Positions 126-19,344 are shown, counted from the first letter of the stretch. The stretch: 20,622 nucleotides of DNA from Coleofasciculus sp. B1-GNL1-01 (GCA_040220235.1 JAVJTO010000041.1); one strand, 5' to 3'. Numbers and translations: made by a program. The notes: a model not told the origin generated them from the sequence alone.

Positions 126-141
126 GCCGGGTGAGTGTCAA
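1..141 (+). mobile_element. Right part and right end of an IS200/IS605-family element
   Basis: Subterminal imperfect hairpin TCACCCG-cGCTT-T-AAGC-CGGGTGA (111-134), then GTG and TCAA (138-141), the usual right-end tetranucleotide of this family. An unrelated coding frame resumes immediately after it. Confidence 0.8.
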
Positions 142-142
142 C

Positions 143-292
143 TGCTTGCAATGTGGTCAATCGTTTCCACTCGATCACTGCCCTGTGCAAGAATTTGAAG
201 ACCATTTGCAGCCCTCAGTTCCGTTCAAAATCTACTATCACACCCTGGAATTTTTCGGACTCTGTGAACCCTGCACCCATCAAATTTATTAG
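143..292 (+). pseudogene. zur: C-terminal half of a Zur (FurB-type) zinc uptake regulator, cut by the IS element
   Basis: Translates as CLQCGQSFPLDHCPVQEFEDHLQPSVPFKIYYHTLEFFGLCEPCTHQIY*. It has two CxxC motifs plus the CPV and HTLEFFGLC signatures of cyanobacterial Zur. There is no start codon and the frame begins right after the IS TCAA end. Confidence 0.85.
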
Positions 293-680: not shown

Positions 681-1598
681 TTAATCAGCTTGACCCTTGC
701 TCGGATGCTTCTTGAAAAATGCCAGTAACCCCAACATAGTAAATCCTAACAAGGTAGAAGGTTCTGGCACAGACTCTACCTGAAAGTCTAAGAAAAATCG
801 ACCGGATGAAGCCAAAGGTGTATGACTATTTTCTTCGTTAACATCAACTAAGCGGAATTCGGCGGTGTAAGTCCCTAGTGGTGCTGATTTATCGGTATAA
901 AATGTGGGAGTGAATGAGAAGTTATCCCCAGAACCAATAATATAGCGATCGCCAATTGAGCTAAAGAGATCTGCGCCCGTAGAATCAGCAACCTGCAAAC
1001 CATCTGTAATCGATAGCAGTTCGAGCGCCACGGTAGCATCGCCAAGTAAGCCTTGCCAACGACCACCAGAGCTATTGTACAAAGCCTGCGCTCCTGAATC
1101 ATCGATGTCCAGCAAAGATGCTACAGGTTTCATCGTCAAGTTAGTATACTCCGATGAGGGTGTATCTTTGCTAATCAATTGATCGGCAAAAATCCCCTTT
1201 CCTGGCAGGAGGGTAATTGGGGGAAGTCCCGTATAAGTTTCGGGAATTCTGTTGTTAAAATTTGTATCAGAAATTTCGTTATTTAGGGGATCTCCTATGA
1301 AACTGTAACTCCCAATACCGTGGAAATGATTGTTAGTTTCGTCTAGTACTGGGTGTGCGAAGAGAAAGGTGAGCCGATTGTAGTTGGGGTTATTAACAAA
1401 TTGGCTGGGATCGGCTGGATTCGTGAAAATCTCGCGACCATCTACACCAATGTAATAGTGCTGATATTCAGGTTTTTCCTCTGGGCCGGGAATGGGTTCA
1501 GCATGTTGGGCGCGAGCCGTTTCCACTGACGTAAACGACGCAATCGCCGCCAAGGGGACAGCTAACAGGACACTAGTAACAGGCGTTGGTGAACGCAT
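681..1598 (-). CDS. All3515-like Zur-repressed PEP-CTERM surface protein
   Basis: Signal peptide (..TARA-QH), conserved-looking blocks NPNYNRLTFLFAH, HFHGIG and NNRIPE, and a C-terminal VPEPS + hydrophobic helix + basic tail. A Zur box lies directly upstream. Confidence 0.8.
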   Translation of the reverse strand: MRSPTPVTSVLLAVPLAAIASFTSVETARAQHAEPIPGPEEKPEYQHYYIGVDGREIFTNPADPSQFVNNPNYNRLTFLFAHPVLDETNNHFHGIGSYSFIGDPLNNEISDTNFNNRIPETYTGLPPITLLPGKGIFADQLISKDTPSSEYTNLTMKPVASLLDIDDSGAQALYNSSGGRWQGLLGDATVALELLSITDGLQVADSTGADLFSSIGDRYIIGSGDNFSFTPTFYTDKSAPLGTYTAEFRLVDVNEENSHTPLASSGRFFLDFQVESVPEPSTLLGFTMLGLLAFFKKHPSKGQAD

Positions 1599-1625: not shown

Positions 1626-1659
1626 TGAGAATGATAATCATTATTTTCCAGGTTGTCAA
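1626..1659 (-). promoter_or_regulatory. sigma70-type promoter overlapped by tandem Zur boxes
   Basis: Minus strand TTGACA (1659-1654), 17 nt, TATCAT (1636-1631). Overlapping boxes TGAGAATGATAATCA (1626-1640) and TGATAATCATTATTT (1632-1646) each have 2 mismatches to TGATAATnATTATCA. Confidence 0.75.
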
Positions 1660-1766: not shown

Positions 1767-3728
1767 CTAGAACGTGAAAGTAGTCCGAATTGTGCCAATT
1801 ACAACATCAGAATTCGTGGTTGTTTGGTTGGGTGCTGTTAGCCAAATCACGCCGGGTGTAATCGAGATATTATCCGTCAGTTGATATTTGTAAAAGGCTT
1901 CGATGTGGAATGGAATTGCTCGATTAGGAATCAGTTTAACAGCATCATTTGTCCCAACAAAGTCTTGAAGAGAAGGCGCAATTCCAATTCGGGTGGCGTA
2001 GGGAGGAACACCCACCACGATTCCGCCTAGATTTCCGCGTCTACCTAAATCGGGGAATGCCAGGGAAACCGCATAACTGAATACATCTGCACTCCCTGCT
2101 TCCTGTCCTGTGGGAGGCTGACCCTTAACGTTGGTATAAACAAACCAACCATTAACCGCAAACCCTGGTGTCACTCGCCACATCCCAGCGACACCAAACG
2201 AATCCGCCGAGTATCGAAACGAAGGGGACGCGAGTGTAATATTGACATTGGCTGAGGTTGTACCCACATCATTCAAAAAGAGTGGTAGTCCCGGCGAGTA
2301 GCTGTGATTGTAGGTTAGACCCAGCGCTATGTTGTCATTAGGTTGAAACGTTAACTGCGCTAATGCTCCATATCTGCCGTTAAACAAACCGCCCCCACGA
2401 TTATTGGCTGCACTCAAACTCTCTGGAATGTTTGCTTCCGCCGCTAGATACCCCAGACTGAGACTGACACTGGGGCTAAAACTGTAGGTTAACCCTGCAC
2501 CTGCACCCACACCAATGCGGTAAATCGGGCTGTACTGAGCAAAGGTAGAGATGGAACCCGTTCCTCCATCGTCATCTGCCCAAGTGCTGAAGGTGGTGGG
2601 GAGATAATCTGGATGTTCACCCAAATTGCCGAAAACAGCAACGCGCAGATTCTGCCCTACTGAGAATTTGTAGCTGAGAAGTCCTAATGCTACACTTCCC
2701 GGCTGTTCACTTGCCCAGATATTGAATGTCTGTCCTCCTTCCGGTGAGCTTCCCAGTATTCCTAATACACTCCCCAGGATGGGGTCAGCACCGTAGCGAA
2801 ATGCTCCCGGACGCTGGGGATGGGGAAGATTCCCTGATTCCAGACGGGTCTGTAAGACATCGTTACCCGTAAAGCTGGTGAGTAAGTTTAGGCGTACCCG
2901 ATTGGCAAATACCGTATTGTTGCGGGTGATGCCAACATTAAATGGGTCAGAATCTCCACTCAACACATCAGTTATCGCAAAAATCGCTTCACCGGATAGC
3001 TTCGTCGTAGTGGAAAACTGCTGAGTTTCCAGTTGGGTGGTTCGCGCTTCTAGGGTATCTACTCTACCTTGCAATGCCACCAGTTCGGTGCGAAATTCGT
3101 CAACCAAGCGTTGCAGGGTAGCTAAGTCTTCTTTGCCCACAACATTAGTGGTGTTTCCTGAAATTAAACGCTCGATTTGATTCATACAGGCATTTAACCC
3201 GGCGGCAAATTCGTAGCGCGTCATTGCCCGATTGCCTCGAAAGGTGCCGTCGGGATACCCTGCAATACAGCCGTAGCGTTCAACTAAGCTTCGCAAGGCT
3301 TCATAAGCCCAATCTGTGGGTTGAACATCGGATAGCTGAGATACAGAGGTGACTTGTTCCATTGCCCCATTAGGCGACTCTGCCTCAGAGAGATAGAGAG
3401 AGTCAACCGAGGGTACGTTGTCCGGTGTTACTTCCGGTGAAAAGACTTCAGATGGTGCTGCTGGTGCAACTGGGGTTTCTACTTCAGGATTGGTGATTTC
3501 TAACTCTGTGGAGGAAACAGTTAAGGAATCAGGCATCGACAGTTCGTGCACATCGAGACTCTTTGATTCCGTTAACGGAGACACAGACACGGGGAATTCT
3601 GTACTTTCTACACTCCCTTCTTCCCCCATCAGCACTTCTGGAGTCGTGATGTCGGCGCTGGCAGATAGCGCACAAATCGAAACTCCGAAAGCCGCACCCA
3701 CAAAGGAATTCCACAATATTTTTGGCAT
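1767..3728 (-). CDS. Cyanobacterial outer-membrane porin (SLH domain + OprB-type barrel; 'iron uptake porin' family)
   Basis: Signal peptide, QVTSVSQLSDVQPTDWAYEAL..LVERYGCIAGYPDGTFRGNRAMTRYEFAAGLNAC SLH block, coiled coil, QFSTTTKLSGE barrel start, and C-terminal GTIRTTFTF. Confidence 0.92.
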   Translation of the reverse strand: MPKILWNSFVGAAFGVSICALSASADITTPEVLMGEEGSVESTEFPVSVSPLTESKSLDVHELSMPDSLTVSSTELEITNPEVETPVAPAAPSEVFSPEVTPDNVPSVDSLYLSEAESPNGAMEQVTSVSQLSDVQPTDWAYEALRSLVERYGCIAGYPDGTFRGNRAMTRYEFAAGLNACMNQIERLISGNTTNVVGKEDLATLQRLVDEFRTELVALQGRVDTLEARTTQLETQQFSTTTKLSGEAIFAITDVLSGDSDPFNVGITRNNTVFANRVRLNLLTSFTGNDVLQTRLESGNLPHPQRPGAFRYGADPILGSVLGILGSSPEGGQTFNIWASEQPGSVALGLLSYKFSVGQNLRVAVFGNLGEHPDYLPTTFSTWADDDGGTGSISTFAQYSPIYRIGVGAGAGLTYSFSPSVSLSLGYLAAEANIPESLSAANNRGGGLFNGRYGALAQLTFQPNDNIALGLTYNHSYSPGLPLFLNDVGTTSANVNITLASPSFRYSADSFGVAGMWRVTPGFAVNGWFVYTNVKGQPPTGQEAGSADVFSYAVSLAFPDLGRRGNLGGIVVGVPPYATRIGIAPSLQDFVGTNDAVKLIPNRAIPFHIEAFYKYQLTDNISITPGVIWLTAPNQTTTNSDVVIGTIRTTFTF

Positions 3729-3885: not shown

Positions 3886-3900
3886 TGAGAATAATTATCA
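3886..3900. promoter_or_regulatory. Zur box between the divergent porin and lanM1 genes
   Basis: TGAGAATAATTATCA, 1 mismatch to consensus. It lies 82 nt before lanM1 and about 157 nt before the porin start. Confidence 0.75.
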
Positions 3901-3982
3901 TAATCAGTATTGTCGTGTAAAGTAGAGAACTTGGGGCAGCATCCTAAATAGATAGACGTGAGTTGGGTGCAGGGGGCAAAAA

Positions 3983-6900
3983 ATGATGAGTCAAGACTGT
4001 TTTCAAGCTGCGAACTGGTATCAGGCGTTGAAATTGACCGAAAGGGTGGCATCTTTGGGGGTAAGTGGGCGTCAGATTGCTGAAAATGGGTATAACGCAG
4101 AACTGGCTGAACGGCGAATTCAACGCTGGCGATCGCAAAACCCCTTGACAAAATCCACTTTTTTTGCTATGAAGCTGGCTCAAGAGGGGATAACAGAACA
4201 AGAGTTTCGCTTTCTTTTAGGGGAACCCATGCGATCGCTCCCTCAGCGTTTTCCCACTATTCCAGAATGGCTCAGAGAAATTGAACAGGCTTTTTCTACT
4301 GCTGATCGTTCTAATTTAAAATCTGTTATTACGTCCGATAACTTTCTGTGTGCGATCGCCCCACTGATTCATCAAGGGATTAACCGCTTGCAGGCAGGAC
4401 TTCAAGCCATTGAAGTTAACCAAAACTCTAAAAACAATCCAGAAGATTTATCATCTCAACTGCCTTTCGATGCCAACACCATTTTATCTATATTATTGGC
4501 AGATTTACCCCAGCAGTTACTCTGGATGTTGACTCCGACGATGGTGCTAGAACTCAACGTAGCACGTCTGCAAGAGCTATTATCCGGTAAAACTGCCCAA
4601 GAACGATATGTCAGCTTTTTACAACGTCTCCAAGAGCAAGACGTCGCCATACAACTGTTACAAGACTATCCGGTTCTTGCTCGTCAACTTGCACTTTGTA
4701 TTCAGCAACACATTGAAGTAAAGCTCGAATTTATTCAACGGCTTTGTACAGATTGGGCAGCAATTTACACAGCTTTTAGTCCTGACAAAGAACCGGGGGT
4801 ATTGGAACAAGTTAATTGCAGCATCAGCGATAGCCATAATGGTGGGCGTTCTGTAATTATCGCTAAATTTCAGTCAGGCTTTAAGGTCGTCTATAAGCCA
4901 AAACCTTTAGCGGTAGATGTCCATTTCCAAGACCTTCTCTATTGGATTAATCAAAAGGCTGTTTTTCTGCCATTAAAACCTTTAAAGATTATTAACTGTG
5001 GAACTTATGGCTGGGTGGAATTTATTGAATCATCAAGTTGCAGCCATCGGTCGCAAATCGAGCGCTTTTATCAACGAATGGGGGGATACTTAGCGTTATT
5101 GTATGCACTTGATGCGACAGACTTTCACTTAGAAAACTTAATTGCATCGGGGGAACATCCCATGCCCATTGATTTGGAAACCCTATTCCAGCCTCGTAAA
5201 ATTGAACCCAATTCCCCCGAAGCAATTTTTATAGCAAATCAGCGAATGGCTCAGTCTGTGTTTCGCATTGGCTTACTGCCTCAGCGGTTATGGAGACAGG
5301 GGGAATCGGCGGGGATTGAAGTGAGTGGAATTGGCGCAACCGATGGTCAAATCATGCCAGAACGTATCCTTACTTTGGCGGAAAAAGGAACTGATGAAAT
5401 GCGAATGACTCGGCAGCAAATCCCCCTACCAGAAAGCAAAAATCGACCGCGTTTGCATGAAGCACAAGTGAATGTTTTAGACTACAAAGAGTCAATCATC
5501 ACCGGATTTACAACGATATATCAATTTTTGATGAAACACCAGGATGAATTATTAGCACAGGATGGACTTTTAACTCGCTTTGCCTCGGATGAAGTGCGTG
5601 TGGTTTTGCGTGAAAGTCGAACCTATGCTTTATTATTGCGAGAGAGTTTCCATCCGGATGTTTTACGGGATGCTTTAAATCGCGATCGCTTATTCGATCG
5701 CCTGTGGGTGGATGTGGAAAATCGCTCTTATCTGGCACAGCTAATCAAAGCAGAACAGGAATCATTATGGCAGGGAGACATTCCTAAATTCACCACCTAC
5801 CCCAATTCCCGCGAACTTAGGCTGAATGAACAAAAGCGAATTCCTGATTTTTTTGAGATATCAGGGATGGAACAGGTGCAGCATCGTATACAACAGTTGA
5901 ACCCAGAAGATTTAGCGTGGCAAGTGAGGTTAATCGAGAGTTCTCTTTCTACTCTAGGAATGAAAGCTGAGGCAGTAGAATGGGTAAGTGTGTCTTTGCC
6001 TGAAATTCAGACCATTCCTGAGCAAGAAACCTTAAATTCAGAACTTTTACAAACCGCTTGTGCGATTGCTGAACGCTTGGAGTCATTGGCGTTACGCGAT
6101 GGAGAAATGGCGAGTTGGATTGGCATCAAACTTATGGATAAACACCATTGGACTGTTGCGCCTTTAGGATGGAGTTTGTTTGATGGTATCCCTGGAATTG
6201 CCTTATTTTTTGCCTATTTGGGAGAAGTTACTCAAGAATCACGCTATACAAGACTGGCTCAACAAGCTTTCTTCACATTACAACGTCAAGTCGAGTACGA
6301 TCGCTCTATTATTACCTCCATTGGTGCCTTTGATGGGTGGGGAGGATTGATTTACACCCTGACGCATCTGGGGAGTTTGTGGCGTCAATCCGAATTGTTG
6401 AATCAAGCGTTGGAGTGGGTGGATATCCTGCCCAAATTGATTGAGAATGATAATCACCTGGATGTCATCGGCGGGGTTGCGGGTTGTATTGGGGTGTTGG
6501 TAGCTCTATATCACTGTATTCCGGATGAGCGGATTAAAGCCGTTGCGATTCAATGTGGCGATCGCATAATATCCCAAAATCAACCGATGGAACAGGGTAG
6601 AGCTTGGATGCCTGAAGACGGAACTAACGCCCTAACTGGATTTTCTCACGGTGCAGCAGGGATGGCTTGGGCGCTGTTGGAATTAGCCACATTAACCGGA
6701 GAGGAGCGTTTTCGCTCTTCAGCAGTTGCGGCAATAACTTATGAGCGCAGTCTCTTTTCTCCTGATGCTAAAAATTGGTTAAATTCGGCTGGAGAGCAAG
6801 ATACATTTAGCGTTGCCTGGAGTCATGGTGCCCCTGGAATTGGACTAGCACGATTACATTCCCTCAAACACTTGGACGACGCACAAATTCCCCTGGAGAT

Positions 6901-7228
6901 TAATACTGCCTTAGAAACAACGCTTGCTCATGGCTTTTGTGGAAATCACTCGTTGTGTAACGGGATGCTGGGCAATCTAGAATTTCTCTTACAAGCGAGT
7001 CAAACCCCTAATTATTCAACTTGGCATTCTTCAGTTACTCGTCTTACTGCCAGTATCCTAGAAAGCCTTCACCAGCAGGGTTGGCGTTGCGGACTACCAT
7101 TAGGAGTTGAAACACTAGGGTTAATGACTGGTTTGGCAGGCATTGGTTACGGATTGCTGCGTCTTGCTGCACCTCAAAAAATTCCTTCCATCTTGGTGCT
7201 TTCCCCTCCCAACACCATTTTAGACTGA
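3983..7228 (+). CDS. lanM: Class II lanthipeptide synthetase LanM (LanM1) with degenerate cyclase zinc site
   Basis: Dehydratase motifs SDSHNGG, VYKPK, DFHLENLIA, IDLETLF and GDIPKF are present. The LanC-like domain has GFSHGAAG and GLMTGLAGIGYGLLR, but WSHG and SLCNG replace WCHG and LCHG. Confidence 0.93.
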   Translation: MMSQDCFQAANWYQALKLTERVASLGVSGRQIAENGYNAELAERRIQRWRSQNPLTKSTFFAMKLAQEGITEQEFRFLLGEPMRSLPQRFPTIPEWLREIEQAFSTADRSNLKSVITSDNFLCAIAPLIHQGINRLQAGLQAIEVNQNSKNNPEDLSSQLPFDANTILSILLADLPQQLLWMLTPTMVLELNVARLQELLSGKTAQERYVSFLQRLQEQDVAIQLLQDYPVLARQLALCIQQHIEVKLEFIQRLCTDWAAIYTAFSPDKEPGVLEQVNCSISDSHNGGRSVIIAKFQSGFKVVYKPKPLAVDVHFQDLLYWINQKAVFLPLKPLKIINCGTYGWVEFIESSSCSHRSQIERFYQRMGGYLALLYALDATDFHLENLIASGEHPMPIDLETLFQPRKIEPNSPEAIFIANQRMAQSVFRIGLLPQRLWRQGESAGIEVSGIGATDGQIMPERILTLAEKGTDEMRMTRQQIPLPESKNRPRLHEAQVNVLDYKESIITGFTTIYQFLMKHQDELLAQDGLLTRFASDEVRVVLRESRTYALLLRESFHPDVLRDALNRDRLFDRLWVDVENRSYLAQLIKAEQESLWQGDIPKFTTYPNSRELRLNEQKRIPDFFEISGMEQVQHRIQQLNPEDLAWQVRLIESSLSTLGMKAEAVEWVSVSLPEIQTIPEQETLNSELLQTACAIAERLESLALRDGEMASWIGIKLMDKHHWTVAPLGWSLFDGIPGIALFFAYLGEVTQESRYTRLAQQAFFTLQRQVEYDRSIITSIGAFDGWGGLIYTLTHLGSLWRQSELLNQALEWVDILPKLIENDNHLDVIGGVAGCIGVLVALYHCIPDERIKAVAIQCGDRIISQNQPMEQGRAWMPEDGTNALTGFSHGAAGMAWALLELATLTGEERFRSSAVAAITYERSLFSPDAKNWLNSAGEQDTFSVAWSHGAPGIGLARLHSLKHLDDAQIPLEINTALETTLAHGFCGNHSLCNGMLGNLEFLLQASQTPNYSTWHSSVTRLTASILESLHQQGWRCGLPLGVETLGLMTGLAGIGYGLLRLAAPQKIPSILVLSPPNTILD

Positions 7229-7244
7229 TGGAACCAAATCCAAA

Positions 7245-9395
7245 ATGGGCATGAAATACCAGGTTGTTTTACAGCATAACGAAGAAGATTGTGGTGCGGC
7301 TTGTTTGGCTGCGATTGCTAAATATTATGGGCGTTTTTTTTCCATCAATCGGGTTCGGGAAGTGGCAGGAACAGGACCACTGGGTACTACATTACTCAAC
7401 CTCCGACAAGGGGCAAAAGCGCTTTTATTCGATGCACGAGGTGTTAAAGCACCCCTAGAACTGATCGATCAAAAAGTTGTGCCATTACCCGGAATTATCC
7501 ATTGGAAAGGGAATCACTGGGTTGTATTGTATGGACGCAAGGGAAACAAGTATGCTATAGCCGATCCAGCCGTGGGGATGCGCTATTTATCTCGCCAAGA
7601 ATTACTGTCTGGCTGGACTAATGGCGTGATGCTCTTACTAGAACCACGTTCTGACTTTAAAACCCAACCCGATGATCGAAACAAAGTTGGTAGTTTTAAT
7701 CGCTTCTTCCAACAATTCTGGAACTATCGGACTCTTCTAGCTGAAGCCTTATTACTAAACTTTGTTTTAGGGCTACTTTCGCTTACATCTCCATTCTTAC
7801 TGCAAATTCTTACTGATGATGTGCTGATTCGAGGGGATATTTACCTGCTCAATGGTGTCATCATTGCTGTTTTGGTAATGCATCTCATTAGCAGTATCTT
7901 TAAATTGATTCAATCCAACTTAGTGGCTCATTTTGCTCAACGGCTGGAATTAAATTTAGTCCTAGAATTTGGTCGTACTATTCTGAGTTTACCCCTGCCT
8001 TACTACGAATCTCATCGGAGTGGTGAAATTATTAGCCGCTTGCGAGACATTCAAGCCATTAATTAACTTATTTCTCAAGCCGGAATTATTCTACCGAGCC
8101 AATTTTTTATTGCCTTAGTTTCCCTGGGTTTCATGCTTGTTTACAGCCCTAAACTCTTGATGATAGCTTTAGCTATTGCTGTCATCATGACGCTATCTAC
8201 TGTAGTATTGCTGCCCAAGATTCAGCAAAAAATCCGCAATCTATTAGCCTTAATCGCAGAAAACCAAAGTTTGTTAATTGAAACCTTCAAAGGGGCAATC
8301 ACTCTGAAAACAAAAAATGCCGCCCCTCAATTTTTTGAAGAATTTCAGATTCGCTATGGACGACAAGCAACCCTCACCTTCAATACCCTACAGATGGCTA
8401 TTGTCAATAATGTATTTTCTGGGTTTGTCTCTCTCAGTGGTGAAACCATTCTGCTATGGTTTGGGAGTAGTTTAGTCTTTGCTCAAACCTTAAGCATCGG
8501 GCAATTGTTAGCGTTTAATGCAATGAACCGAAATTGCCTGATTTTAATTACAACAATTCTAAGTTTTGTGAATCAATTCGCCTTTACTCAAACTGCCATT
8601 CAGCGCTTGATGGATGTGATTGATTCTACACCTGAAGTTCAAGACACTACTCCCAAGCCGAGGGTCAAAATTCCTGGTAATGCCACGATTACCTGCACTC
8701 ATCTCAACTTTCATCACACAGGTAGAGTGGAGTTACTCCAAGACTTTTCTCTTACCATTCCTGGGGGAAAAGGGATTGCCTTAATTGGTAAATCTGGCTG
8801 CGGTAAAAGTACCCTAGCTAAACTAATTGCAGGGTTATATCTGCCCCAATCTGGTAATATTCGCCTTGATGATTACAATTTACAAGACCTCTCGCTCGAT
8901 TGCATTAGAAAGCAGATTATTCTAATTCCCCAAGAAGCTCACTTTTGGAGTCGCTCAATTATTGATAATCTTACTCTGGGAAATCCTCAGATTGGCTTTG
9001 AGGAAATTATTAAAGCCTGTCAGATTGCTCAAGCAGATGAATTTATTAGCAAACTTCCCAACAAATATCAAACTATTTTAGGAGAATTCGGCGCTAATCT
9101 TTCAGGAGGACAACGGCAACGATTAGCGATCGCATTAGGTATTGTCACTGACCCACCCATCTTGATTTTAGATGAATCTACAGCGAGTCTCGATCCAGTG
9201 AGTGAAACAGAAGTCCTCGATCGACTCCTCACCCACCGTCAAGGAAAAACCACAATTCTGATTAGTCATCGCCCCAGGGTTATCAACCGTGCCGATTGGA
9301 TTGTCTTCTTGGAAGAAGGACAGGTAAAACTTCAAGGAAGTCCAGAAGTTCTACGTTCCAAAGCTGGAGATCATCTGGATTTTTTGACTCCTTGA
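7245..9395 (+). pseudogene. lanT: C39 peptidase-containing ABC transporter (LanT/PCAT) split by one in-frame TAA at 8064-8066
   Basis: QHNEEDCGAAC, HWVV and IADP peptidase motifs, TM domain, Walker A GKSGCGKST, LSGGQRQR and ILDEST. ORFs 7245..8066 and 8133..9395 share a frame, and the gap reads AIN*LISQAGIILPSQFFIALVSLGF. Repair gives 716 aa. Confidence 0.88.
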
Positions 9396-9525
9396 TTCTT
9401 CTCGAAGTTTTTGGTCTTGTTTCAGTTGATGTAAGAACTGATTGACGGCTTTCATGCTGATTTGAGTCTGTGATAGTGCGATCGCATTTTGCAGATGATG
9501 TCCTCATTGAGATTAGCATCAGTTT

Positions 9526-9540
9526 TGATAATCATTATCA
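9526..9540. promoter_or_regulatory. Perfect Zur box (distal) upstream of lanA1
   Basis: TGATAATCATTATCA, an exact 7-1-7 palindrome. Confidence 0.88.
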
Positions 9541-9559
9541 TTCAGTTAGATAATAAATC

Positions 9560-9592
9560 AAAATGATAATGATTATCATTTTTAGCTATACT
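9560..9592 (+). promoter_or_regulatory. Perfect Zur box (proximal) over the -35 region of the lanA1 promoter
   Basis: AAAATGATAATGATTATCATTTT (9560-9582) is a perfect 11-1-11 palindrome. A candidate -10 TATACT is at 9587-9592. Confidence 0.88.
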
Positions 9593-9644
9593 TACTTTAG
9601 TGGCGAAAAGCCAAATAAATATCTATAGCCAATGGAGGCTGTAT

Positions 9645-9824
9645 ATGTCTAACGCCGATATTATCCGTGCGTGGAAGGATGAAGACTACCGCGCCAGTTT
9701 GAGCGATGAAGAGAAGGAACTGTTGCCAGAAAATCCAGTGGAAGTGATTGAACTGACGGATGAAGAGCTTTCCTCGGTGTCGGGGGGATGCACTCTCTGT
9801 GGCAATCCGTGGCACACTCTTTGA
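9645..9824 (+). CDS. lanA: Lanthipeptide precursor LanA1 (mersacidin/lichenicidin-type leader), 59 aa, core CTLCGNPWHTL
   Basis: GGAGG (9634-9638) precedes ATG 9645. The 48-aa leader DIIRAWKD..YR.SLS....LPENP...IELTDEELSSVSGG ends in a double-Gly site. Confidence 0.9.
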   Translation: MSNADIIRAWKDEDYRASLSDEEKELLPENPVEVIELTDEELSSVSGGCTLCGNPWHTL

Positions 9825-9894
9825 TGCCATTGCCGCGCTATGTACTCTACAGAAGTACTGATGCGATCAAGGCTGACTAATTTTGTTAAACTGT

Positions 9895-9937
9895 TGACCC
9901 AGAGAGGACTTGATACTATCTCTTCTGGGTCATTCTT
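9895..9937 (+). terminator. Stem-loop after lanA1
   Basis: TGACCCAGA (9895-9903) pairs with TCTGGGTCA (9924-9932), followed by TTCTT. Confidence 0.55.
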
Positions 9938-10211
9938 GCAAAATGCTGAACGACTCTAAAGTTAATAAAAATTTAAGGTGATTACAATATTAAATTCCTC
10001 TTTCCACACTAGGTAATCGGCTCCGCCGCCGACAAGTCTTTCTATACTATGCTGTCGAACAAGAACTGGAGATTTCATAGACGTTTTACAAGTCATTTCA
10101 TGAAAAATCTTTATTTAGGTTATTGATTATTGGAGGAGGATGGACTTTTTCATAATTTAAATTCCTAATGAGGAGTGGAATTTTTGTATCGATTAGAGTT
10201 TTCTCCATCGC

Positions 10212-11282
10212 CTAGTCTGATAGTTTGGGTTTTACAACAACTGGTTCTTTTCCCCGTGCAATCAATGCTATTCTTTTTTCTTGAGGCTGGAGGATACAAA
10301 GCTGATCGTCACCAAGCTGAAATACAACAAAATCTCCGGCGAGGTGAGTCGCATTCTGGACACTCCAAAATGCAAAGGGTGTCTCCAGGGAGAATTGGAT
10401 TTTTAAGTTCTCTTTCTCGTTGCTACCCATAATCCCTCCCGCCGCCCAAACGACAGTCCGATATTCCCAATTGGTATTTTCAGTAAGTTTGGGGACGGCT
10501 CCAAAAGGATTGGGGGCACAATTGTACCATTCGGGCGGTTCGGGTGTCGGGGCAACAGAGGCAAAATCGGAAAGGATAGCCTTGGAATTAACCAATAGTT
10601 CAAACTTCCCTGCTTCATTTTTGCCTACACAGAGCCTGCCATTTCTATCTGTAGCCATCACATCTTTTATACTCTCTTGACTCGTGCCGTCAAGGTTTGA
10701 CCGAATGACTTGCTGACCATCAGAGGTCATGAAATATAGCACATATTCTTCGCTTGGTTGTAGCTGTTTGACTGAAATCACATCAAGCTGAGTTAACATA
10801 CTGGTCTGGCTGTTCAGCCCATACAAACCTAATAATAGGAGGTAACTGATACCATGAATAATGATTGTAGATTTGAGAGCATTTTGAACGGCTTTTTGCT
10901 GTTTCTGAAGTAGGAACCAAAAGAATGGATACTCGATGAATAATGTGAGGATAAAGGCAAAGGTCACAAAGAGCCAGAGCCAGATATGAATATTTTCAAT
11001 AGTAATGCTTGGAATAGGAGATAGCCGATCTAGTATCAATAACATTCCTCCCCAAGCCGAGGCGTAATTAGCGACAACGAGGAGATTAATTGATTTTGAG
11101 CGCGGCGTGTGAAAGAATTTTGAAAGCAGGATTCCTTCGACAATACCAATAACCGCATTGCCAATAAAAAGGTGAACCAATCCAGTCCACATCAACGGTG
11201 TTCCTGCATTAGCAAGGACAGGAACAGGTGAGAGCGCGATCGCAAAAGCAAGAATCGCAACAAGCTTCCAGTGGATTTTCAT
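10212..11282 (-). CDS. Hypothetical membrane protein (signal peptide/several N-terminal TM helices + soluble beta-rich C-terminal domain)
   Basis: Long open frame with hydrophobic segments in the first ~160 aa (ANAGTPLMW..HLFIGNAVIGIVEG, VANYASAW, IEYPFF). ATG 11282 is preferred over TTG 11294. No family recognised with confidence. Confidence 0.75.
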   Translation of the reverse strand: MKIHWKLVAILAFAIALSPVPVLANAGTPLMWTGLVHLFIGNAVIGIVEGILLSKFFHTPRSKSINLLVVANYASAWGGMLLILDRLSPIPSITIENIHIWLWLFVTFAFILTLFIEYPFFWFLLQKQQKAVQNALKSTIIIHGISYLLLLGLYGLNSQTSMLTQLDVISVKQLQPSEEYVLYFMTSDGQQVIRSNLDGTSQESIKDVMATDRNGRLCVGKNEAGKFELLVNSKAILSDFASVAPTPEPPEWYNCAPNPFGAVPKLTENTNWEYRTVVWAAGGIMGSNEKENLKIQFSLETPFAFWSVQNATHLAGDFVVFQLGDDQLCILQPQEKRIALIARGKEPVVVKPKLSD

Positions 11283-11440
11283 GTCTTTTATCAAACTAAC
11301 TCATTAAAGCGTTGCGCTCCTACCATTTGAGCAATGCACTGACCTAAACCCCCTTTGATATCACTTTTATTTGCTTCTACCGCGAAATCTCTCTGGCGCG
11401 AGAATGGCAAGCGATCGCATTGTGCCTGCTTTAACTAAAT

Positions 11441-14400
11441 TTAGTCTCGCTCGACTCTCTGTATAAAAGGAGGTGCTAACAGCAACACTGAGGGAACGCG
11501 CTGAGGTTCCGCTAATCGCAAGAGTCCGTAACCAATCCCTGCCAATCCCATCATTAACCCCGGTGTTTCAACACCCAATAGCGTTCCACAACGCCAGCCA
11601 TACTGATTGATACTTTCTAAAATCATGGCGGTAATGCGATGAATCTGCTCATCCCACTGCCCCTCTTTCAGGATTTCACGGGCTTGTAATAAGAGTTCTA
11701 GATTGCCCAAATCGCCGTGACAGAGGCAATGGTTTAAACCAAATCCCCGTTCGAGGGTGATGTTAATCGCCCTGTTAATTTCTGCACGAGTTTCGGCATC
11801 ATCCCTATGGTTGAGGGAACGCAAACGACTTAATCCTATTCCTGAGATGCCATTACACCAGATTGGCAATCCCTGACAGAACTGACTCCGTTCATAAGCA
11901 ATTCCAGCATCAGCCGTTTTCCGAAAACGTTCCTCATGGGTCAGTGCTGCTAATTCAAGCAATGCCCAAGCGATGCCTGCTGCACCATGGGCGAATCCTG
12001 TTGTTTGGAATTGTTGAGTATTGTGAATCCAACAGACGCCCTGTTCTTGGGGTTGAGCCGTGGCAATCAAGCGATCGCCACATTCAATTGCCGCAGCCAG
12101 AACGGCATCTGAGGGAAAGCAATGATAGAGGGCTAGCAAACTGGCGATACATCCAGCCGCACCACCAATTAAGTCAAAATACTCATCGGTTTCAATCATT
12201 CCCCGGATGGAATGGATCAACTCCTCCGCCTCGGTTAACCGTTCGGGTTGCTCCCACAGTACTCCCAAATGAGTCAGGGTATAAATTACCCCTCCCCACC
12301 CACTAAAGCCACCAATCGTCGGAATTAATGATTGACCCTGTTGAATTTGATGCTCTAGAGTTCTGAAAGCAGCTTGAGCGAGTTGAGTGTAGCGTTTTTC
12401 TTGGGTAATCGCTCCTAAATAGGCAAGAAATAAAGCTACCCCAGGCAAGCCATCGTAGAGACTCCAGGTTAAGGAAGCCAGCGTCCAATGGGAACCCCCT
12501 GCTAGAGTTAAACCCAGCCAAGTTGCATCCTCGTGACTACGGAGGGCTAATAACTCTAACCTGTCGCCAATCTGACAAGCCGCCGCTAGAAGTTGTTCGC
12601 GATCGCACCTTGTCTGCGGCTCAAATTGTGGGTATCCTTGCCAACCAACACCCTCCTGTGCCATCGCTAACGTGGAAACAGAAGCGCGGATAAACCAGGT
12701 TTGTCGCTCTAAATCCCGTTCATCTAACTGCTCAAGGCGATAGACTACCTGTTCCATTCCTGATCGCTCAAAAAAATTAGCGAAGATTTGGTTATTGCTG
12801 CCAACCACATCGCGGGAATTGGGACGAGTCGTAAACATGGGGATGTCCCCCTGCCATAACTCCTGCCGTTCCGTTGGGATAACCTTGGCAATATCCGGAA
12901 GATGCTGGACTTCAATCCAGAGCTTATCAAACCAGCGATCGCGCTCTAGGGCATTTCGCAACACATCGGGATGGAAACTCTCGGCTAGTAAGGCGGCGTA
13001 AGTCCGGGTGGGACGCAAAACGACACGTATCTCATCCTCAGCGAAGTGAGTTAAACGGTTCTGGAACTCATCGCGGTATTTTACCAAATCCTGATAAATG
13101 GTGGTAAATCCAGTAACAATCTCCTCGGCGTAATCTAAAACATTCACCTCAGTCTCCAGCAGATGCGGTTGATTCTGAGCGCCTTGCAGCAACCTTTGCT
13201 GGCGAACGACTCGCATTTCATCCGTAGCCACTCCTTCCCAAGACCGAATCCGTCGTGGTACAGTCTGACCGGGCTGACTACCGATGCCACTTTTGTCAAG
13301 TTCTTTTGATTGGTGACTTGTCCAACGACGATTTGGCAGTAATCCCACCCGCAAAACGGAGTAAGCCAGTTGTTGGCTTGCCATAAATACCGATTCTTTT
13401 AAAGGGGTGGTACTGATAGTGGTGCGGCGGGGGTGGAATAGGGATTCTAAGTCAATTAAAATAGGTTGCTCCCCGGCGGCAATTAAGTTTTCCGAATGAA
13501 AATCTGTGGCTTCTAGGGCATACAGCAACGCTAAATAGCCGCCAATTCGTTGATAAAAACGCTGAACCTCTTCTGGGGAGTGACAACTGTGGGCGGTGAC
13601 AAATTCTACCCATCCATAACTCCCACGATTGAGAATGTTGAGAGTTTTGAAGGCTGGGTGATTTCCTCGGTGATTGAGCCAAGTGAGGAGTTCCTGAAAA
13701 TGGACATCTATGGCTAGGGATTTGGGTTTATAAACAATCTGGAAGCCAGAACTAAATTTAGCGATCGCAACAGAACGCCCCCCTCGGTGACTATCCCCTG
13801 TATTCGGTTTTAGTTCTGTCAATACACCGGGATTGGTGTGGGGAGAAAACGTCGTGCAAATCTCATCCCAATCAGCACACAGACGCTGGATAAATTCCAG
13901 GCTAACCTTAACCCAGCGTTCAATACAAGTTACTAATTGTCTTGCCAAAACGGGATATTCTTGTAAGATACCAAGCATGACATCCCGTTGATAGATTCGT
14001 TCTAAGAAGCTTAAAAATCGCTCTCTCGGAGTATTGCCTGACAACAGCCCTTGCAAACGAGCAATGTTGAGTTCTAATATCAGGGTTTGGTTCAACATCT
14101 GGAGCAATGACTGGGGCAAATGCTGATAGAAAATTTCGTGTATTGTGTTGGGGTCAAAGGGGGTTTTGGATTGGGTTTTCTTGAGTAGGGATTGGATACC
14201 AACGTCTAGGCGCTCAATGCCTTGGCTAATTAGGGGTTCAATGGCATAGAGGAAACCCGATGACTCTTTACCGGGTGGTAACTGGGAAGGCGGGATGATT
14301 TTGATCTTGGGGGGTTCGGTACGGGAAAAGGCGTTCTCTAGTTCGTTTAACCAATCGGGTGGAGTCGGGGAACGCTGTTGTAATGCGGCTATCGATTCAC

Positions 14401-14629
14401 CTAAAAGGTAGCGAAAGGATTCAGGGGTGAGTCCATCAATTGCTAATCGTTGAGTATAGTAGGAATCTATGGGAAAAGGGGTTTGCGATCGCCATCGCTG
14501 CCATCGACGCTCTGCCAAAGCCTCGTCAAATTCCTGATCAATTGAAGGCTCCAGTGTGTCTAACGCTGCAATCCGTTCCCTCAATGTCAGTGCCTGATAC
14601 CAGGCTACTCCCTTTAACCCCTGATTCAT
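11441..14629 (-). CDS. lanM: Class II lanthipeptide synthetase LanM (LanM2), cyclase zinc ligands retained
   Basis: GDSHRGG, VYKPK, DFHSENLIA, IDLESLF, RVVLRPT and GDIPMF, then cyclase GFAHGAAG, WCNG and HCLCHG. ATG 14629 has a GGAG upstream; the alternative start is TTG 14644. Confidence 0.93.
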   Translation of the reverse strand: MNQGLKGVAWYQALTLRERIAALDTLEPSIDQEFDEALAERRWQRWRSQTPFPIDSYYTQRLAIDGLTPESFRYLLGESIAALQQRSPTPPDWLNELENAFSRTEPPKIKIIPPSQLPPGKESSGFLYAIEPLISQGIERLDVGIQSLLKKTQSKTPFDPNTIHEIFYQHLPQSLLQMLNQTLILELNIARLQGLLSGNTPRERFLSFLERIYQRDVMLGILQEYPVLARQLVTCIERWVKVSLEFIQRLCADWDEICTTFSPHTNPGVLTELKPNTGDSHRGGRSVAIAKFSSGFQIVYKPKSLAIDVHFQELLTWLNHRGNHPAFKTLNILNRGSYGWVEFVTAHSCHSPEEVQRFYQRIGGYLALLYALEATDFHSENLIAAGEQPILIDLESLFHPRRTTISTTPLKESVFMASQQLAYSVLRVGLLPNRRWTSHQSKELDKSGIGSQPGQTVPRRIRSWEGVATDEMRVVRQQRLLQGAQNQPHLLETEVNVLDYAEEIVTGFTTIYQDLVKYRDEFQNRLTHFAEDEIRVVLRPTRTYAALLAESFHPDVLRNALERDRWFDKLWIEVQHLPDIAKVIPTERQELWQGDIPMFTTRPNSRDVVGSNNQIFANFFERSGMEQVVYRLEQLDERDLERQTWFIRASVSTLAMAQEGVGWQGYPQFEPQTRCDREQLLAAACQIGDRLELLALRSHEDATWLGLTLAGGSHWTLASLTWSLYDGLPGVALFLAYLGAITQEKRYTQLAQAAFRTLEHQIQQGQSLIPTIGGFSGWGGVIYTLTHLGVLWEQPERLTEAEELIHSIRGMIETDEYFDLIGGAAGCIASLLALYHCFPSDAVLAAAIECGDRLIATAQPQEQGVCWIHNTQQFQTTGFAHGAAGIAWALLELAALTHEERFRKTADAGIAYERSQFCQGLPIWCNGISGIGLSRLRSLNHRDDAETRAEINRAINITLERGFGLNHCLCHGDLGNLELLLQAREILKEGQWDEQIHRITAMILESINQYGWRCGTLLGVETPGLMMGLAGIGYGLLRLAEPQRVPSVLLLAPPFIQRVERD

Positions 14630-14704
14630 CACGCTTTGCTCCAAAATCCTGCCTCAACCTATTCGTTATAATTAGTACTTGACGCTGATAATACATCACT
14701 AGTT

Positions 14705-14938
14705 TTACAAACTCAGGGTTGCTTCCCCACAATGTTCGCAATCGGTGTGGCAGGTTTCTTCATGAGACGTACCGTGCGCCAGCACGTTCAGCGCACCGCC
14801 AGCCATGGATGACATCTCTTCATCTGCCAGTTCAATCAATCCGGCTGGATTCTCTGGAAGCTGCGCCTTCTCAGCCTCACTCAAGCTTTCACGATAGTCT
14901 GTGTCTTTCCAAGCGCGGATGATGTCGATATTCGACAT
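14705..14938 (-). CDS. lanA: Lanthipeptide precursor LanA2, 77 aa, His/Cys/acid-rich core ALNVLAHGTSHEETCHTDCEHCGEATLSL
   Basis: AAGGAG precedes ATG 14938. The 48-aa leader is 34/48 identical to LanA1 by manual alignment and ends EMSSMAGG. It lies directly upstream of lanM2. Confidence 0.9.
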   Translation of the reverse strand: MSNIDIIRAWKDTDYRESLSEAEKAQLPENPAGLIELADEEMSSMAGGALNVLAHGTSHEETCHTDCEHCGEATLSL

Positions 14939-14981
14939 GAGATTCTCCTTTGGGTAAAACCCATGGTTTTGCTGTCTCCAG

Positions 14982-15016
14982 AGTATAAACAAAAATGAGA
15001 ATGATAACAATTATCA
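14982..15016 (-). promoter_or_regulatory. lanA2-lanM2 promoter with a Zur box over the -35 element
   Basis: Minus strand TTGTTA (15010-15005), 17 nt, TATACT (14987-14982). Box TGATAACAATTATCA (15002-15016) has 1 mismatch, with an offset weaker box at 14996-15010. Confidence 0.78.
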
Positions 15017-15096: not shown

Positions 15097-15129
15097 TTGT
15101 ATGAGATAATGATTATCAATCTCATACAA
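15097..15129. promoter_or_regulatory. Zur box inside an inverted repeat upstream of the second PEP-CTERM gene
   Basis: AGATAATGATTATCA (15104-15118, 1 mismatch). Arms are TTGTATGAGAT (15097-15107) and ATCTCATACAA (15119-15129). Confidence 0.78.
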
Positions 15130-15138
15130 AGCCAGTGC

Positions 15139-16152
15139 ATGACCATGACCAGTACAGTCCCCGTTAGCCTCACGTCCCTTACCTTATCTGCATTAGCGAT
15201 CGCGGCTACCTCACCTGCTGCGGCAATCTCCCTAGCGACTGGGTATAAGTACGAGCGCTTCGATATCCCTGGTGCTACATTCGTTACCGTTAACGCGATT
15301 GACAATATTGGGCAAATTGCCGGACAAAAAGCAGAAAACGGTCCTGCAACAGGTTTCTTTGTGGATAGCGATGGAGAAACAACATTTTTTGACCCGCCTG
15401 GATCTTACGCGACTGCGGTATGGGACATGAACGATGCGGGTACTATCGTGGGGTACTCCTTCCGCGACGACTCCTTTCTCAAGACAGAACCCTACATATA
15501 TAACAGCAGTCAGTTTTACACTCCGGATCTGTTCCCTGGCAATAATTTCCCAGACGTGGAGTTCTCTTCAATCAATAATGCAGGGCAGATTGTTGGGTTC
15601 TACTATACCGATCTTTTCTGGAATCCTTATGAGGTGCATGGATTTCTGTTAAATGCCGATGACTTCTCAACCCTAAGTCCTGATGATGTCACCCCGATTA
15701 CGATTGCTGGGGCGAGTCAGATTTTCCCTTGGGGAATCAATGACGCTGGCAAGATTACTGGTCATTTTAATGATACCAATGGCACCCATGGTTTTCTTCT
15801 GGAAGGGGAGCAACTCACCCAACTCAACATTCCCGGAGCAGACAGAACTAGACCCTCTGGCATTAACAATAAAGATTCTATCATCGGCGTGTTTACCCTG
15901 CCGGAAACAGGGCGAAATTCTTACTCGTTTATTTGGAACAATGGGCAATTTCAGGAACTGGTCTTCCCCAATGCCTTGTCAACTCGGGTGCTGGACATTA
16001 ATGATGCCGGAGTGATTGTTGGACGCTATCAAGATGCTGACGGCAAATTTTATGGCTTCCGCGCCACACCTGTTCCTGAACCCAGCACGGTTTTCGCATT
16101 GGTGGGATTGGGTGTTGTCGCTTTTTTAGGGAATCGTCAAAAACGTTTATAA
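15139..16152 (+). CDS. PEP-CTERM surface protein with six HAF-like extracellular repeats (probable beta-propeller)
   Basis: Signal peptide, repeats AIDNIGQIAG, DMNDAGTIVG, SINNAGQIVG, GINDAGKITG, GINNKDSIIG and DINDAGVIVG, then VPEPS + TM helix + RQKR. Start is probably ATG 15139 or 15145. Confidence 0.85.
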   Translation: MTMTSTVPVSLTSLTLSALAIAATSPAAAISLATGYKYERFDIPGATFVTVNAIDNIGQIAGQKAENGPATGFFVDSDGETTFFDPPGSYATAVWDMNDAGTIVGYSFRDDSFLKTEPYIYNSSQFYTPDLFPGNNFPDVEFSSINNAGQIVGFYYTDLFWNPYEVHGFLLNADDFSTLSPDDVTPITIAGASQIFPWGINDAGKITGHFNDTNGTHGFLLEGEQLTQLNIPGADRTRPSGINNKDSIIGVFTLPETGRNSYSFIWNNGQFQELVFPNALSTRVLDINDAGVIVGRYQDADGKFYGFRATPVPEPSTVFALVGLGVVAFLGNRQKRL

Positions 16153-16334: not shown

Positions 16335-16368
16335 TTGTCATCTGTGATTATAATGATTATCATTATCA
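16335..16368 (+). promoter_or_regulatory. znuA operon promoter overlapped by tandem Zur boxes
   Basis: TTGTCA (16335-16340), 17 nt, TATCAT (16358-16363). Boxes TTATAATGATTATCA (16348-16362) and TGATTATCATTATCA (16354-16368) each have 1 mismatch. Confidence 0.85.
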
Positions 16369-16424
16369 AAAATGAGCGTTACCAAAGTCAAACCTGCTAT
16401 CAATCCAGCAAAGGAGACTAACCC

Positions 16425-17468
16425 ATGCCAAATTATCGCCGTCTAGTTACCACAATCCTGGCGTTAGGAATCGTGTCTTTAGTCGGTTGTGGACAAACTC
16501 AAACGAATGAAACAACCGAATCGGCTCAATCTTCTGACTCTAACATCTCAGAGAACCAGCTTGACGTGGTTGTGAGTATTCCACCGCAAAAATATTTTGT
16601 CGAACGGATTGGTGGTGAATATGTCAATGTCACCGTCATGTTACCGCCTGGTGCGAGTCCAGCCACCTATGAACCCAAACCCCAACAGCTACAAAATTTA
16701 GCGGATGCAGAGGCGTATGCCCGCATCCAGGTTCCTTTTGAGAATGCCTGGTGGGAGCGCATTCGTTCTGGGAATCCGGAGATGAAAGTTGTGGATTTGA
16801 CCGAAGGAGTTAACCGAATGCCTATGGCGGCGGAACATTCCCATTCCGGTGAAGAACACCATCACCACAGTGACGCCGACGAACACCAGCATGATCAGGA
16901 GGCTAGTTCTCAAACCGAAACCGTAGCCAATCCCGATCCTCACATTTGGCTATCACCCCCCCTGGTTAAAGAACAAGCACAAACCATTTATGCAGCCCTT
17001 GTCGAACTTGACCCCAGCCGTCAACAGATTTATCAAGAGAACCTAAATGCCTTCATTGTTGACCTAGAGCAACTGGATCAAGACATTAAGCAAACCCTTT
17101 CTGGGGTTGAGAATCGAACCTTCATGGTCTTCCATCCGGCTTGGGGCTACTTTGCTCGTGCCTACAATTTGGAAATGGTTCCCATTGAAGTTGGAGGCAA
17201 TGAACCCAGTGCGGCAGAAATGTCCAAGCTGGTTTCTAAAGCTAAAGCAGACAATATTCAAGTTATTTTTGCTCAACCTCAATTTAGCACCAGGAACGCT
17301 AAAACAATTGCCAATGAAATTGGTGGAGAAGTGATTTTACTCGATCCACTGGCTGAAGACTGGATGAGCAATATGAGCAAAGTATCTAACACATTTAAAG
17401 ATGTTCTGGGTGATCCAACCGCCCTTTTAGTTGTCACCCCTCACCTTGTCGCTGTGATTAGCAAATAG
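16425..17468 (+). CDS. znuA: Zinc ABC transporter substrate-binding lipoprotein
   Basis: AAGGAG RBS, lipobox LVGC, PGASPATYEPKP, His-rich loop EHSHSGEEHHHHSDADEHQHD, DPHIWLSP and FHPAWGYFA. Confidence 0.9.
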   Translation: MPNYRRLVTTILALGIVSLVGCGQTQTNETTESAQSSDSNISENQLDVVVSIPPQKYFVERIGGEYVNVTVMLPPGASPATYEPKPQQLQNLADAEAYARIQVPFENAWWERIRSGNPEMKVVDLTEGVNRMPMAAEHSHSGEEHHHHSDADEHQHDQEASSQTETVANPDPHIWLSPPLVKEQAQTIYAALVELDPSRQQIYQENLNAFIVDLEQLDQDIKQTLSGVENRTFMVFHPAWGYFARAYNLEMVPIEVGGNEPSAAEMSKLVSKAKADNIQVIFAQPQFSTRNAKTIANEIGGEVILLDPLAEDWMSNMSKVSNTFKDVLGDPTALLVVTPHLVAVISK

Positions 17469-17601
17469 TCGCTCATTATTGGCTTTTTTTGCATCGAATG
17501 ACACTCAGCTTTTTGCCCCTATCGATTACTAATTTTATCATACCCATGTTTCCTGATGTTGCGCCATATCTGACCCATCCGGGCGATAGCAAAAGGGGTA
17601 T

Positions 17602-18423: not shown

Positions 18424-18460
18424 CTCAAAACCTGAATAGCCGAGACCCAAGGAAATAATT

Positions 18461-19306: not shown

Positions 19307-19344
19307 AATCTTTCCCGTTTAATTTGTTAGGTTTTAGTTGATTT

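Follow-up and report, generated by a model that had tools for sequence, protein, structure and literature searches.

What would two lanthipeptide-type cassettes do in the middle of a zinc-uptake island? The question is raised by a contig of Coleofasciculus sp. B1-GNL1-01 (GCA_040220235.1, JAVJTO010000041.1; C41 below), whose entire 20,622 bp we call the window and analysed within the 8.66-Mb genome. A preliminary description, made from the sequence alone, had placed lanM1-lanT-lanA1 and lanA2-lanM2 between porin and All3515-like genes on one side and PEP-CTERM, znuACB and COG0523 genes on the other. A listing of open reading frames (ORFs) and Pfam and NCBIfam profile scans of the window proteins bear out this layout, and the window appears to be the core of a zinc-starvation island with two class II lanthipeptide-type cassettes belonging to the Zur regulon. 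The same description had taken the products to chelate, shuttle or buffer zinc. Its regulatory part stands: Zur-type control of the lan cassettes is strongly supported by comparison. We put a probability of roughly 0.5 on the reading that Cys/His peptides are made under zinc starvation, exported, and bind zinc. Sequence and comparison give good support to the regulatory half of this reading; the chemical half we infer because the only features common to these short exported peptides are a zinc-starvation operator and Cys/His motifs. The genes that carry the argument are as follows.

681..1598, minus strand: zepA, a Zur-repressed PEP-CTERM exoprotein of the all3515 family (NF040463, E 2e-86)
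1767..3728, minus strand: SLH-OprB porin of the NCBIfam 'iron uptake porin' subfamily, divergent from lanM1 (NF033921)
3983..7228, plus strand: lanM1, class II synthetase of 1081 aa (TIGR03897)
7245..9395, plus strand: lanT, C39 peptidase and ABC transporter, with an in-frame TAA at 8064-8066
9645..9824, plus strand: lanA1 precursor, double-Gly leader and 11-aa core (TIGR03898, E 6e-18)
11441..14644, minus strand: lanM2, class II synthetase of 1067 aa (TIGR03897)
14705..14938, minus strand: lanA2 precursor, double-Gly leader and 29-aa core (TIGR03898, E 2e-21)
15139..16152, plus strand: HAF-repeat (propeller-type) PEP-CTERM exoprotein (Pfam and NCBIfam scans)
16425..20307, plus strand: znuA (with a His-rich loop), znuC, znuB and a COG0523 GTPase (Pfam and NCBIfam scans)

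Both synthetases match TIGR03897 (1027 and 988 bits), with PF13575 (DUF4135) and PF05147 (LANC_like) nearly full length; this bifunctional architecture, a DUF4135 dehydratase joined to a LanC-like domain, is a hallmark of class II. The two precursors score 64.6 and 75.5 bits against a TIGR03898 cut-off of 23.5 (the mersacidin/lichenicidin leader family). Both leaders terminate in Gly-Gly, and the cores contain Ser/Thr and Cys, as class II precursors should.

The operators were sought with the palindrome TGATAATnATTATCA, the Anabaena and cyanobacterial Zur consensus string reported by Napolitano et al. 2012. It has 15 matches with at most 3 mismatches in the window against 1.72 expected, and 0 of 100 shuffles reach 15. 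The boxes first reported upstream of lanM1, lanA1 and lanA2 are among those recovered. They are given here without strand.

9526-9540 and 9564-9578: two perfect Zur-type boxes, 66-105 nt upstream of lanA1 and over its promoter-like sites
3886..3906: Zur-type box(es) with 1 mismatch in the porin/lanM1 divergent region, at the same position in relatives
15002..15016: Zur-type box with 1 mismatch, 63 nt upstream of lanA2
15104..15124: Zur-type box(es) with 1 mismatch, just before the HAF-repeat gene
16345..16368 (16348/16354): overlapping Zur-type boxes with 1 mismatch, on the znuA promoter-like sites
1626..1646 (1626/1632): two overlapping Zur-type boxes with 2 mismatches each at zepA, over its promoter-like -10

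Promoter-like hexamers, as consensus matches only, coincide with the boxes at zepA (1659..1631, 11/12 hexamer matches), the porin (3921..3894, overlapping the box at 3886..3906), lanA1, lanA2 and znuA. Two hallmarks of a cyanobacterial Zur regulon are found in this genome and related loci: a 15-bp 7-1-7 palindrome over promoters and the co-occurrence with znuABC, COG0523, zepA and a hemB paralogue. A further box with 2 mismatches lies inside lanM1 (6442-6456), ~800 nt before lanT, and may be chance or an internal promoter.

The sites are concentrated in the window. Genome-wide there are 24 with at most 1 mismatch, 7 of them in the window, which makes up 0.24% of the genome length; a reversed-pattern control finds 2 sites against the 24 of the true pattern. 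At up to 2 mismatches the genome background is 137 sites, or ~0.003 per 200 nt. Elsewhere in the genome, intergenic boxes precede a COG0523 gene, a gene for an AztC-like zinc-binding protein and a flavin adenine dinucleotide (FAD) oxidoreductase gene, and some with 1 mismatch adjoin FhuF-like and ExbB/TonB genes; the remaining boxes outside the window are within ORFs. A second zinc-related cluster occupies contig C5 of the same genome, where over ~9 kb a porin and a box are followed by five paralogues of COG0523 and a fragment of hemB.

These operators might instead be read by another Fur-family regulator (FurA with iron, or a paralogue), or the peptides might serve Cu, Ni, Co or Fe, with the zinc genes as mere neighbours. 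The 7-1-7 palindrome is equally the classical Fur-box core; the genome encodes five intact Fur-family proteins and one split one; the porin subfamily carries the name 'iron uptake porin'; sites with 1 mismatch occur at FhuF-like and ExbB/TonB genes; and the thioamide-forming YcaO/TfuA enzymes of some related cassettes (see below) are reminiscent of copper-binding peptides. Set against this, the box precedes zepA, znuA, COG0523, AztC-like and hemB-paralogue genes, and the isiA-like iron-stress gene has no upstream box better than 4 mismatches, which as a single marker is weak evidence. The long-chain flavodoxin, another marker of the iron regulon, was not found in the genome. PMC10957091 reports that a 15-bp palindrome in front of cyanobacterial zepA genes agrees with the Zur consensus of Anabaena, that Zur binds two overlapping sites on the all3515 promoter, and that TPEN induces all3515. 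Taken together, we see a slim chance for a different regulator or metal. Transcript data do not bear on this point: two raw RNA runs labelled as this species have 0 reads anywhere on the window and are hence uninformative on expression. In two contig sets from metatranscriptomes of near relatives, coverage is confined to 10205-11296 (the 360-aa membrane protein gene) and 16424-19410 (znuACB), each in other flanking sequence, so that they are silent on the lan genes.

The arrangement recurs in dozens of cyanobacteria. A search with LanM1 found LanMs in 42 of 401 cyanobacterial genomes, none more than 54% identical to the query, and 20 kb were fetched around the 13 best matches (12 outside the window). 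At 8 of the 12 closest-homologue loci a box with at most 1 mismatch stands immediately before lanM; the region between is short and divergent, with a porin from the same NCBIfam subfamily on its other side. The conserved gene order among close homologues is porin<-box->lanM-lanT-(box)-lanA-hlyD: the porin is divergent from lanM in these 8 related loci, and export genes accompany the cassettes. Among distant LanM loci, 0 of 17 (97 kb) have a box at lanM. A second survey started from the leaders, with a 12-precursor alignment as query; it returned 215 relatives in species-representative genomes, from which the best 79 loci were kept. Counting a box as a site with at most 2 mismatches within 200 nt upstream, 32 of 97 mersacidin-type-leader precursors (76 loci) are box-linked. 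Histidine is present in 32/32 box-linked cores (mean 1.72, 6.2% of residues) and in 16/65 box-less ones (0.7% of residues; Fisher p 5e-14, with kin that are not independent). The preliminary description had expected such cassettes to recur beside zinc genes, and they do, with znuA/COG0523, AztCAB, a hemB paralogue or the porin next to them. In three loci from Coleofasciculus metagenome-assembled genomes (MAGs), znuA and znuB are 95-99% identical to those of the window (ZnuA of Coleofasciculus MAG records is 95-97% identical to the window's) and follow immediately after a cassette of another type (family IV below); COG0523 is there too, at 95-98% identity, in two of the three. Near-identical znu genes behind a different cassette imply that the cassette at this chromosomal site varies between related strains. 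Cassettes may also travel on plasmids. One resembling family III (below) shares its 200-kb contig with conjugation genes of the VirD4-like kind and stands beside AztCAB with boxes (locus L067).

Box-linked cores also share Cys/His patterns. A motif census was taken on 100 distinct cores (from the survey, the window and the loci of the LanM1 search), 36 box-linked and 64 others. One of four patterns fits 33/36 box-linked cores against 4/64 others, and 3 of those 4 exceptions are family I members with the box at lanM instead. The four families are as follows.

Family I: C-x2-C-G-[ND]-P-x-H-T-x4-C, that is C-x2-C-x4-H-x5-C; mostly Nostocales
Family II: C-x-C-x4-C-x3/4-H-H, then an acidic Ser/Thr tail; Microcoleus, Tychonema and others
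Family III: H-T-x-[TS]-x0/1-C-x-H-C; Calothrix, Nostoc, Okeania, Dapis and others
Family IV: C-T-T-C-T-G...H-T...C; Coleofasciculus, Spirulina

A C-terminal ending of acidic, Ser/Thr and hydrophobic residues is found in 25/36 box-linked cores and 4/64 others. Both window cores have Cys and His and lack Lys/Arg, just as first noticed, and this last feature is not general, the box-linked cores of relatives averaging 1.47 Lys+Arg. The LanA1 core (9789-9821; 11 aa with 2 Cys, 1 His and 0 Lys/Arg) is a short family I/II-like core: it reads C-x2-C-G-N-P-x-H-T, follows the motif only up to H-T, and misses the fourth Cys and the tail of its relatives. The LanA2 core (14708-14794; 29 aa with 3 Cys, 4 His, 5 acidic residues and 0 Lys/Arg) is a variant of the family III motif, H-T-x-T-x-C-x-H-C.

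The composition of the cores bears on whether these are ordinary antimicrobial lanthipeptides, induced at low zinc so that competitors are killed or lysed as a nutrient runs out, with Cys held in rings and His needed for activity and not for metal capture. Both precursors stand above the mersacidin/lichenicidin leader cut-off, LanM2 and the family I and III LanMs have a complete cyclase zinc site (see below), and an exporter is present while an importer was not found. Histidine argues the other way, being in every one of the 32 box-linked cores of the survey and nearly ten times rarer in the others; the cores are moreover acidic, not cationic, in two of the four families the LanM lacks the zinc ligands, and no LanI/LanFEG-type immunity genes were recognised by Pfam and NCBIfam scans of the window. 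Mersacidin/lichenicidin-type lantibiotics have a lipid II-binding ring motif with a conserved Glu. Read by residue against this motif, the LanA1 core has no Glu and the LanA2 core has Cys, Thr and Glu spaced differently. Overall, we regard an antimicrobial role as distinctly improbable.

The second line of evidence comes from the synthetases. When LanM1 was aligned to LicM2 (PDB 6ST5), Ser was found in place of the first Cys ligand of the cyclase zinc site and Asn in place of the His ligand; the corresponding columns of the LanC-like domain read W-S-H-G and L-C-N-G, which leaves Ser, Cys and Asn at the three positions. The Cys-Cys-His zinc site, a hallmark of class II cyclases, is thus missing from LanM1 and complete in LanM2. 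We read these positions in 66 loci. Fourteen lack the ligands, 13 with Ser-Cys-Asn and 1 with Asn-Cys-Ser. They comprise every locus of family II (7) and of family IV (7), each with Zur-type boxes; Cys-Cys-His is kept in 52/52 other loci (10 family I, 8 family III and 34 box-less). A FastTree phylogeny of 66 LanMs (a quick method, with midpoint root and Shimodaira-Hasegawa (SH)-like support) places the ligand-less LanMs, LanM1 included, in one clade (support 100), sister to a family III clade that includes LanM2 (support 99). Family I LanMs form a separate clade (support 100), and box-less LanMs fall elsewhere. That the same two substitutions persist across LanMs ~50% identical, in a LanC-like domain that is still full length, argues for selection rather than decay as the origin of the ligand loss. 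What such enzymes do may go either way. In LctM, loss of the ligands reportedly abolishes cyclisation while dehydration persists; class III LanKC enzymes cyclise without Cys-Cys-His ligands. Given both precedents, LanM1-type enzymes may or may not cyclise. Zur regulons habitually hold zinc-independent paralogues, such as hemB2, folE2 and thrS2 (PMC6103462), and a ligand-less LanM clade would fit this habit.

Companion genes differ between the families. Family II cassettes carry a YcaO and TfuA-like pair of the thioamidation type, together with a hemB paralogue, COG0523 and a 405-aa FAD oxidoreductase behind boxes, and their product may be a hybrid thioamide and dehydro peptide. Loci L064, L065, L068 and L086-L088 combine a ligand-less LanM, YcaO/TfuA-like proteins and the FAD oxidoreductase behind Zur-type boxes. 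In the present genome a homologue of the 405-aa oxidoreductase lies behind a perfect box, beside the AztC-like gene. Family III is accompanied by HAF-repeat exoproteins, whose homologues are found in 8/10 loci and end either in PEP-CTERM, as in the window, or in a long C-terminal extension. The second form (574-610 aa, without PEP-CTERM) was seen in loci L102, L104, L113, L125 and L132, with a glycine-rich, repeat-like extension in L113, and suggests another secretion route for the same propeller.

Such companions raise the possibility that the peptides are not scavengers. They might act as a zinc-stress signal or, in partnership with ZepA, the HAF-repeat exoprotein or ZnuA, buffer or chaperone zinc at the cell surface or in the periplasm. 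The pairing of the HAF-repeat exoprotein with 8/10 family III cassettes, the presence of ZepA in the same island and the failure to find a re-uptake receptor would all agree with this. It has no specific support, and LanT/HlyD systems mostly export to the medium. We hold such a role to be very improbable. A complex prediction with the HAF-repeat domain, the LanA2 core and a zinc ion gave no support for a complex, a result that speaks neither for nor against one.

We next consider the state of the genes. Cassette 1 (lanM1-lanT-lanA1) is probably impaired in this genome. Its lanT has a single in-frame TAA where homologues have Gln, and the halves on either side of the stop match positions 4-111 and 136-266 of the ABC_membrane profile; hlyD is absent from the window contig. 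By contrast, lanM1, lanM2, lanA2 and the HAF gene are intact, and an intact lanT-hlyD pair, without lanM or lanA, lies on contig C45. Cassette 2 (lanA2-lanM2 with the HAF protein) could use this pair. C45 and the window probably adjoin across an unresolved repeat, since two halves of one Fur-family gene lie at facing contig ends: C45 ends in the 5' half (PF01475 match), and the window begins with the 3' half, next to zepA.

131..292, plus strand: 3' half of a Fur-family (Zur-like) gene (blastp to an intact paralogue)

Against an intact Zur-like paralogue on C115, the window piece aligns by blastp to residues 84-129 (59% identity) and the C45 tail to residues 12-82 (49% identity). An Rfam search of the window and the C45 tail returned no family, the element splitting the gene included. 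C45 probably continues the zinc island beyond the window start. At C45:9000-20116 the neighbours of lanT-hlyD are two genes without annotation, one for a YfcE-like phosphodiesterase and, behind a 2-mismatch box, a fragment of hemB.

Are the lanthipeptide genes of this genome then decaying, functionless remnants, regardless of what their relatives do in other genomes? The TAA at a conserved Gln, a LanA1 core of 11 aa without the fourth conserved Cys and the tail, the lack of hlyD on the contig, the split Fur-family gene next to it and the different cassette carried by related strains at the same site all speak for decay. They are answered by lanM1 (1081 aa), lanM2 (1067 aa) and lanA2, which are intact with full-length domain matches, by perfect or near-perfect boxes at the lan genes, and by the intact lanT-hlyD pair on the probably adjoining C45; the lanT stop could also be a sequencing error. 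We consider it unlikely that the genes are remnants.

How, then, would a zinc-binding system work? Judging from the motif and its company, Zur would leave the 7-1-7 operators over the promoters of lanA1, lanA2, porin/lanM1, the HAF gene, zepA and znuA when zinc is low. LanM would dehydrate Ser/Thr of the precursor, and LanM2-type enzymes might in addition close thioether rings. LanM1-type enzymes, having shed their own zinc site, would either work zinc-free or leave the cysteines free. By homology only, the LanT/HlyD exporter is predicted to cleave the leader after Gly-Gly and to secrete a short, acidic, Cys/His-rich peptide. Outside the cell this peptide would bind Zn(II) through Cys/His motifs such as C-x2-C-x4-H-x5-C, and the loaded form might feed a porin-ZnuABC route alongside ZepA or withhold zinc from competitors.

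Several points weigh against the peptides being zinc binders of this kind. As for the hallmarks of a metallophore, metal-starvation-controlled biosynthesis and export are represented by operator and gene content only, and a dedicated receptor or importer is lacking from the window and the annotated related loci. Pfam and NCBIfam scans of the window and the annotated 20-kb loci revealed no TonB-dependent receptor or peptide importer, only the porin and ZnuABC, so that a peptide complex of 1-3 kDa has no evident re-entry route. Antimicrobial two-component lantibiotics have leaders of the same family. LanM2 and all family I and III enzymes retain the zinc site, and may turn cysteines into thioethers, which are poor zinc ligands. 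Cassette 1 has the lanT stop, the short LanA1 core and no hlyD on the contig. The box is not exclusive to zinc, as the motif is shared with the Fur-box core and two 1-mismatch genome sites adjoin FhuF-like and ExbB/TonB genes. Finally, the leader survey is biased: its query alignment consists mostly of box-linked precursors, its rows are kin, and some loci overlap those of the LanM1 search.

With the LicM2 (PDB 6ST5), haloduracin and lichenicidin systems the cassettes share a LanM with DUF4135 and LanC-like domains, a double-Gly TIGR03898 leader and a C39-ABC LanT. Unlike those class II systems, they have Zur-type operators, His-rich acidic cores with Cys/His motifs, one ligand-less LanM clade, and porin, HAF exoprotein and YcaO/TfuA companions, with immunity genes not recognised. 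With the Zur-regulated zincophores staphylopine/pseudopaline (cnt), [S,S]-EDDS and coelibactin they share biosynthesis and export under a zinc-starvation repressor, beside zinc importers; those are opine, aminopolycarboxylate or non-ribosomal peptide synthetase small molecules with dedicated receptors, whereas here the product is a ribosomal peptide and a receptor was not found. Methanobactins are ribosomally synthesised and post-translationally modified peptides that serve as secreted metallophores under metal control, with S and N ligands, a role that is proposed here; family II cassettes resemble them further in carrying thioamide-type enzymes. Methanobactins differ in their MbnBC enzymes, in binding copper, and in uptake by the TonB-dependent MbnT. 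As in class III LanKC, the LanC-like domain of LanM1-type enzymes lacks the Cys-Cys-His ligands, yet these enzymes are class II by architecture and tree position. They also recall HemB2, FolE2, ThrS2 and C- ribosomal proteins, zinc-free variants expressed when zinc is short (PMC6103462). ZepA/All3515 of Anabaena PCC 7120, which provides extracellular, His-based zinc scavenging under Zur (PMC10957091), has the same island and operator, and differs in being a 30-kDa PEP-CTERM protein and not a modified peptide.

The preliminary description was unaware of any Zur-controlled LanM metallophore pathway, and full-text literature searches likewise found no Zur-controlled lanthipeptide or LanM zincophore system, with most subscription journals outside its scope, so that absence is not proven. 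The ZepA paper (PMC10957091) makes no mention of lanthipeptides, LanM or porins; it and PMC13559783 cite the staphylopine/pseudopaline, [S,S]-EDDS and coelibactin zincophores, and Zur-guided genome mining in Streptomyces, as cited in PMC13559783, concerns other chemistry. Most cyanobacterial lanthipeptide clusters are without a known function. The regulatory and compositional signature singles out 32/97 surveyed precursors and gives them a testable role in zinc economy; as cultured hosts include Anabaena, Nodularia, Fischerella, Calothrix and Spirulina, it is open to direct test. If true, these would be the first ribosomal peptide zincophores, and would offer an example from nature of a class II synthetase whose evolution led it to dispense with zinc. 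More tentatively, and at somewhat less than even odds, we propose that filamentous and other cyanobacteria make a LanM-tailored ribosomal zincophore family with four Cys/His core types, one of them with thioamide-type enzymes; that one LanM lineage discarded its catalytic zinc to run zinc-free or to keep thiols free; that the peptides, with ZepA, the Zur-controlled porin, the HAF-repeat exoprotein and ZnuABC, would make a complete zinc route from outside to cytoplasm; and that strains exchange the cassette at one chromosomal site.

One gene between the cassettes is to be set apart.

10212..11294, minus strand: 360-aa membrane protein of an unannotated conserved family (no Pfam or NCBIfam match)

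This gene is codirectional with lanA2-lanM2 and was considered as a Zur-regulon member; that assignment was rejected, with a box in 0/5 homologue loci, and the gene is probably not part of the lanthipeptide system. Its family comprises 246 homologues in cyanobacteria and Verrucomicrobiota, and metatranscriptome contigs of near relatives carry the gene at high depth with different flanks. Both contig ends (1-60 and 20563-20622) are repeats: the first 40 bases of the window recur at the start of C25, and the last 40 recur in C45 and C86.

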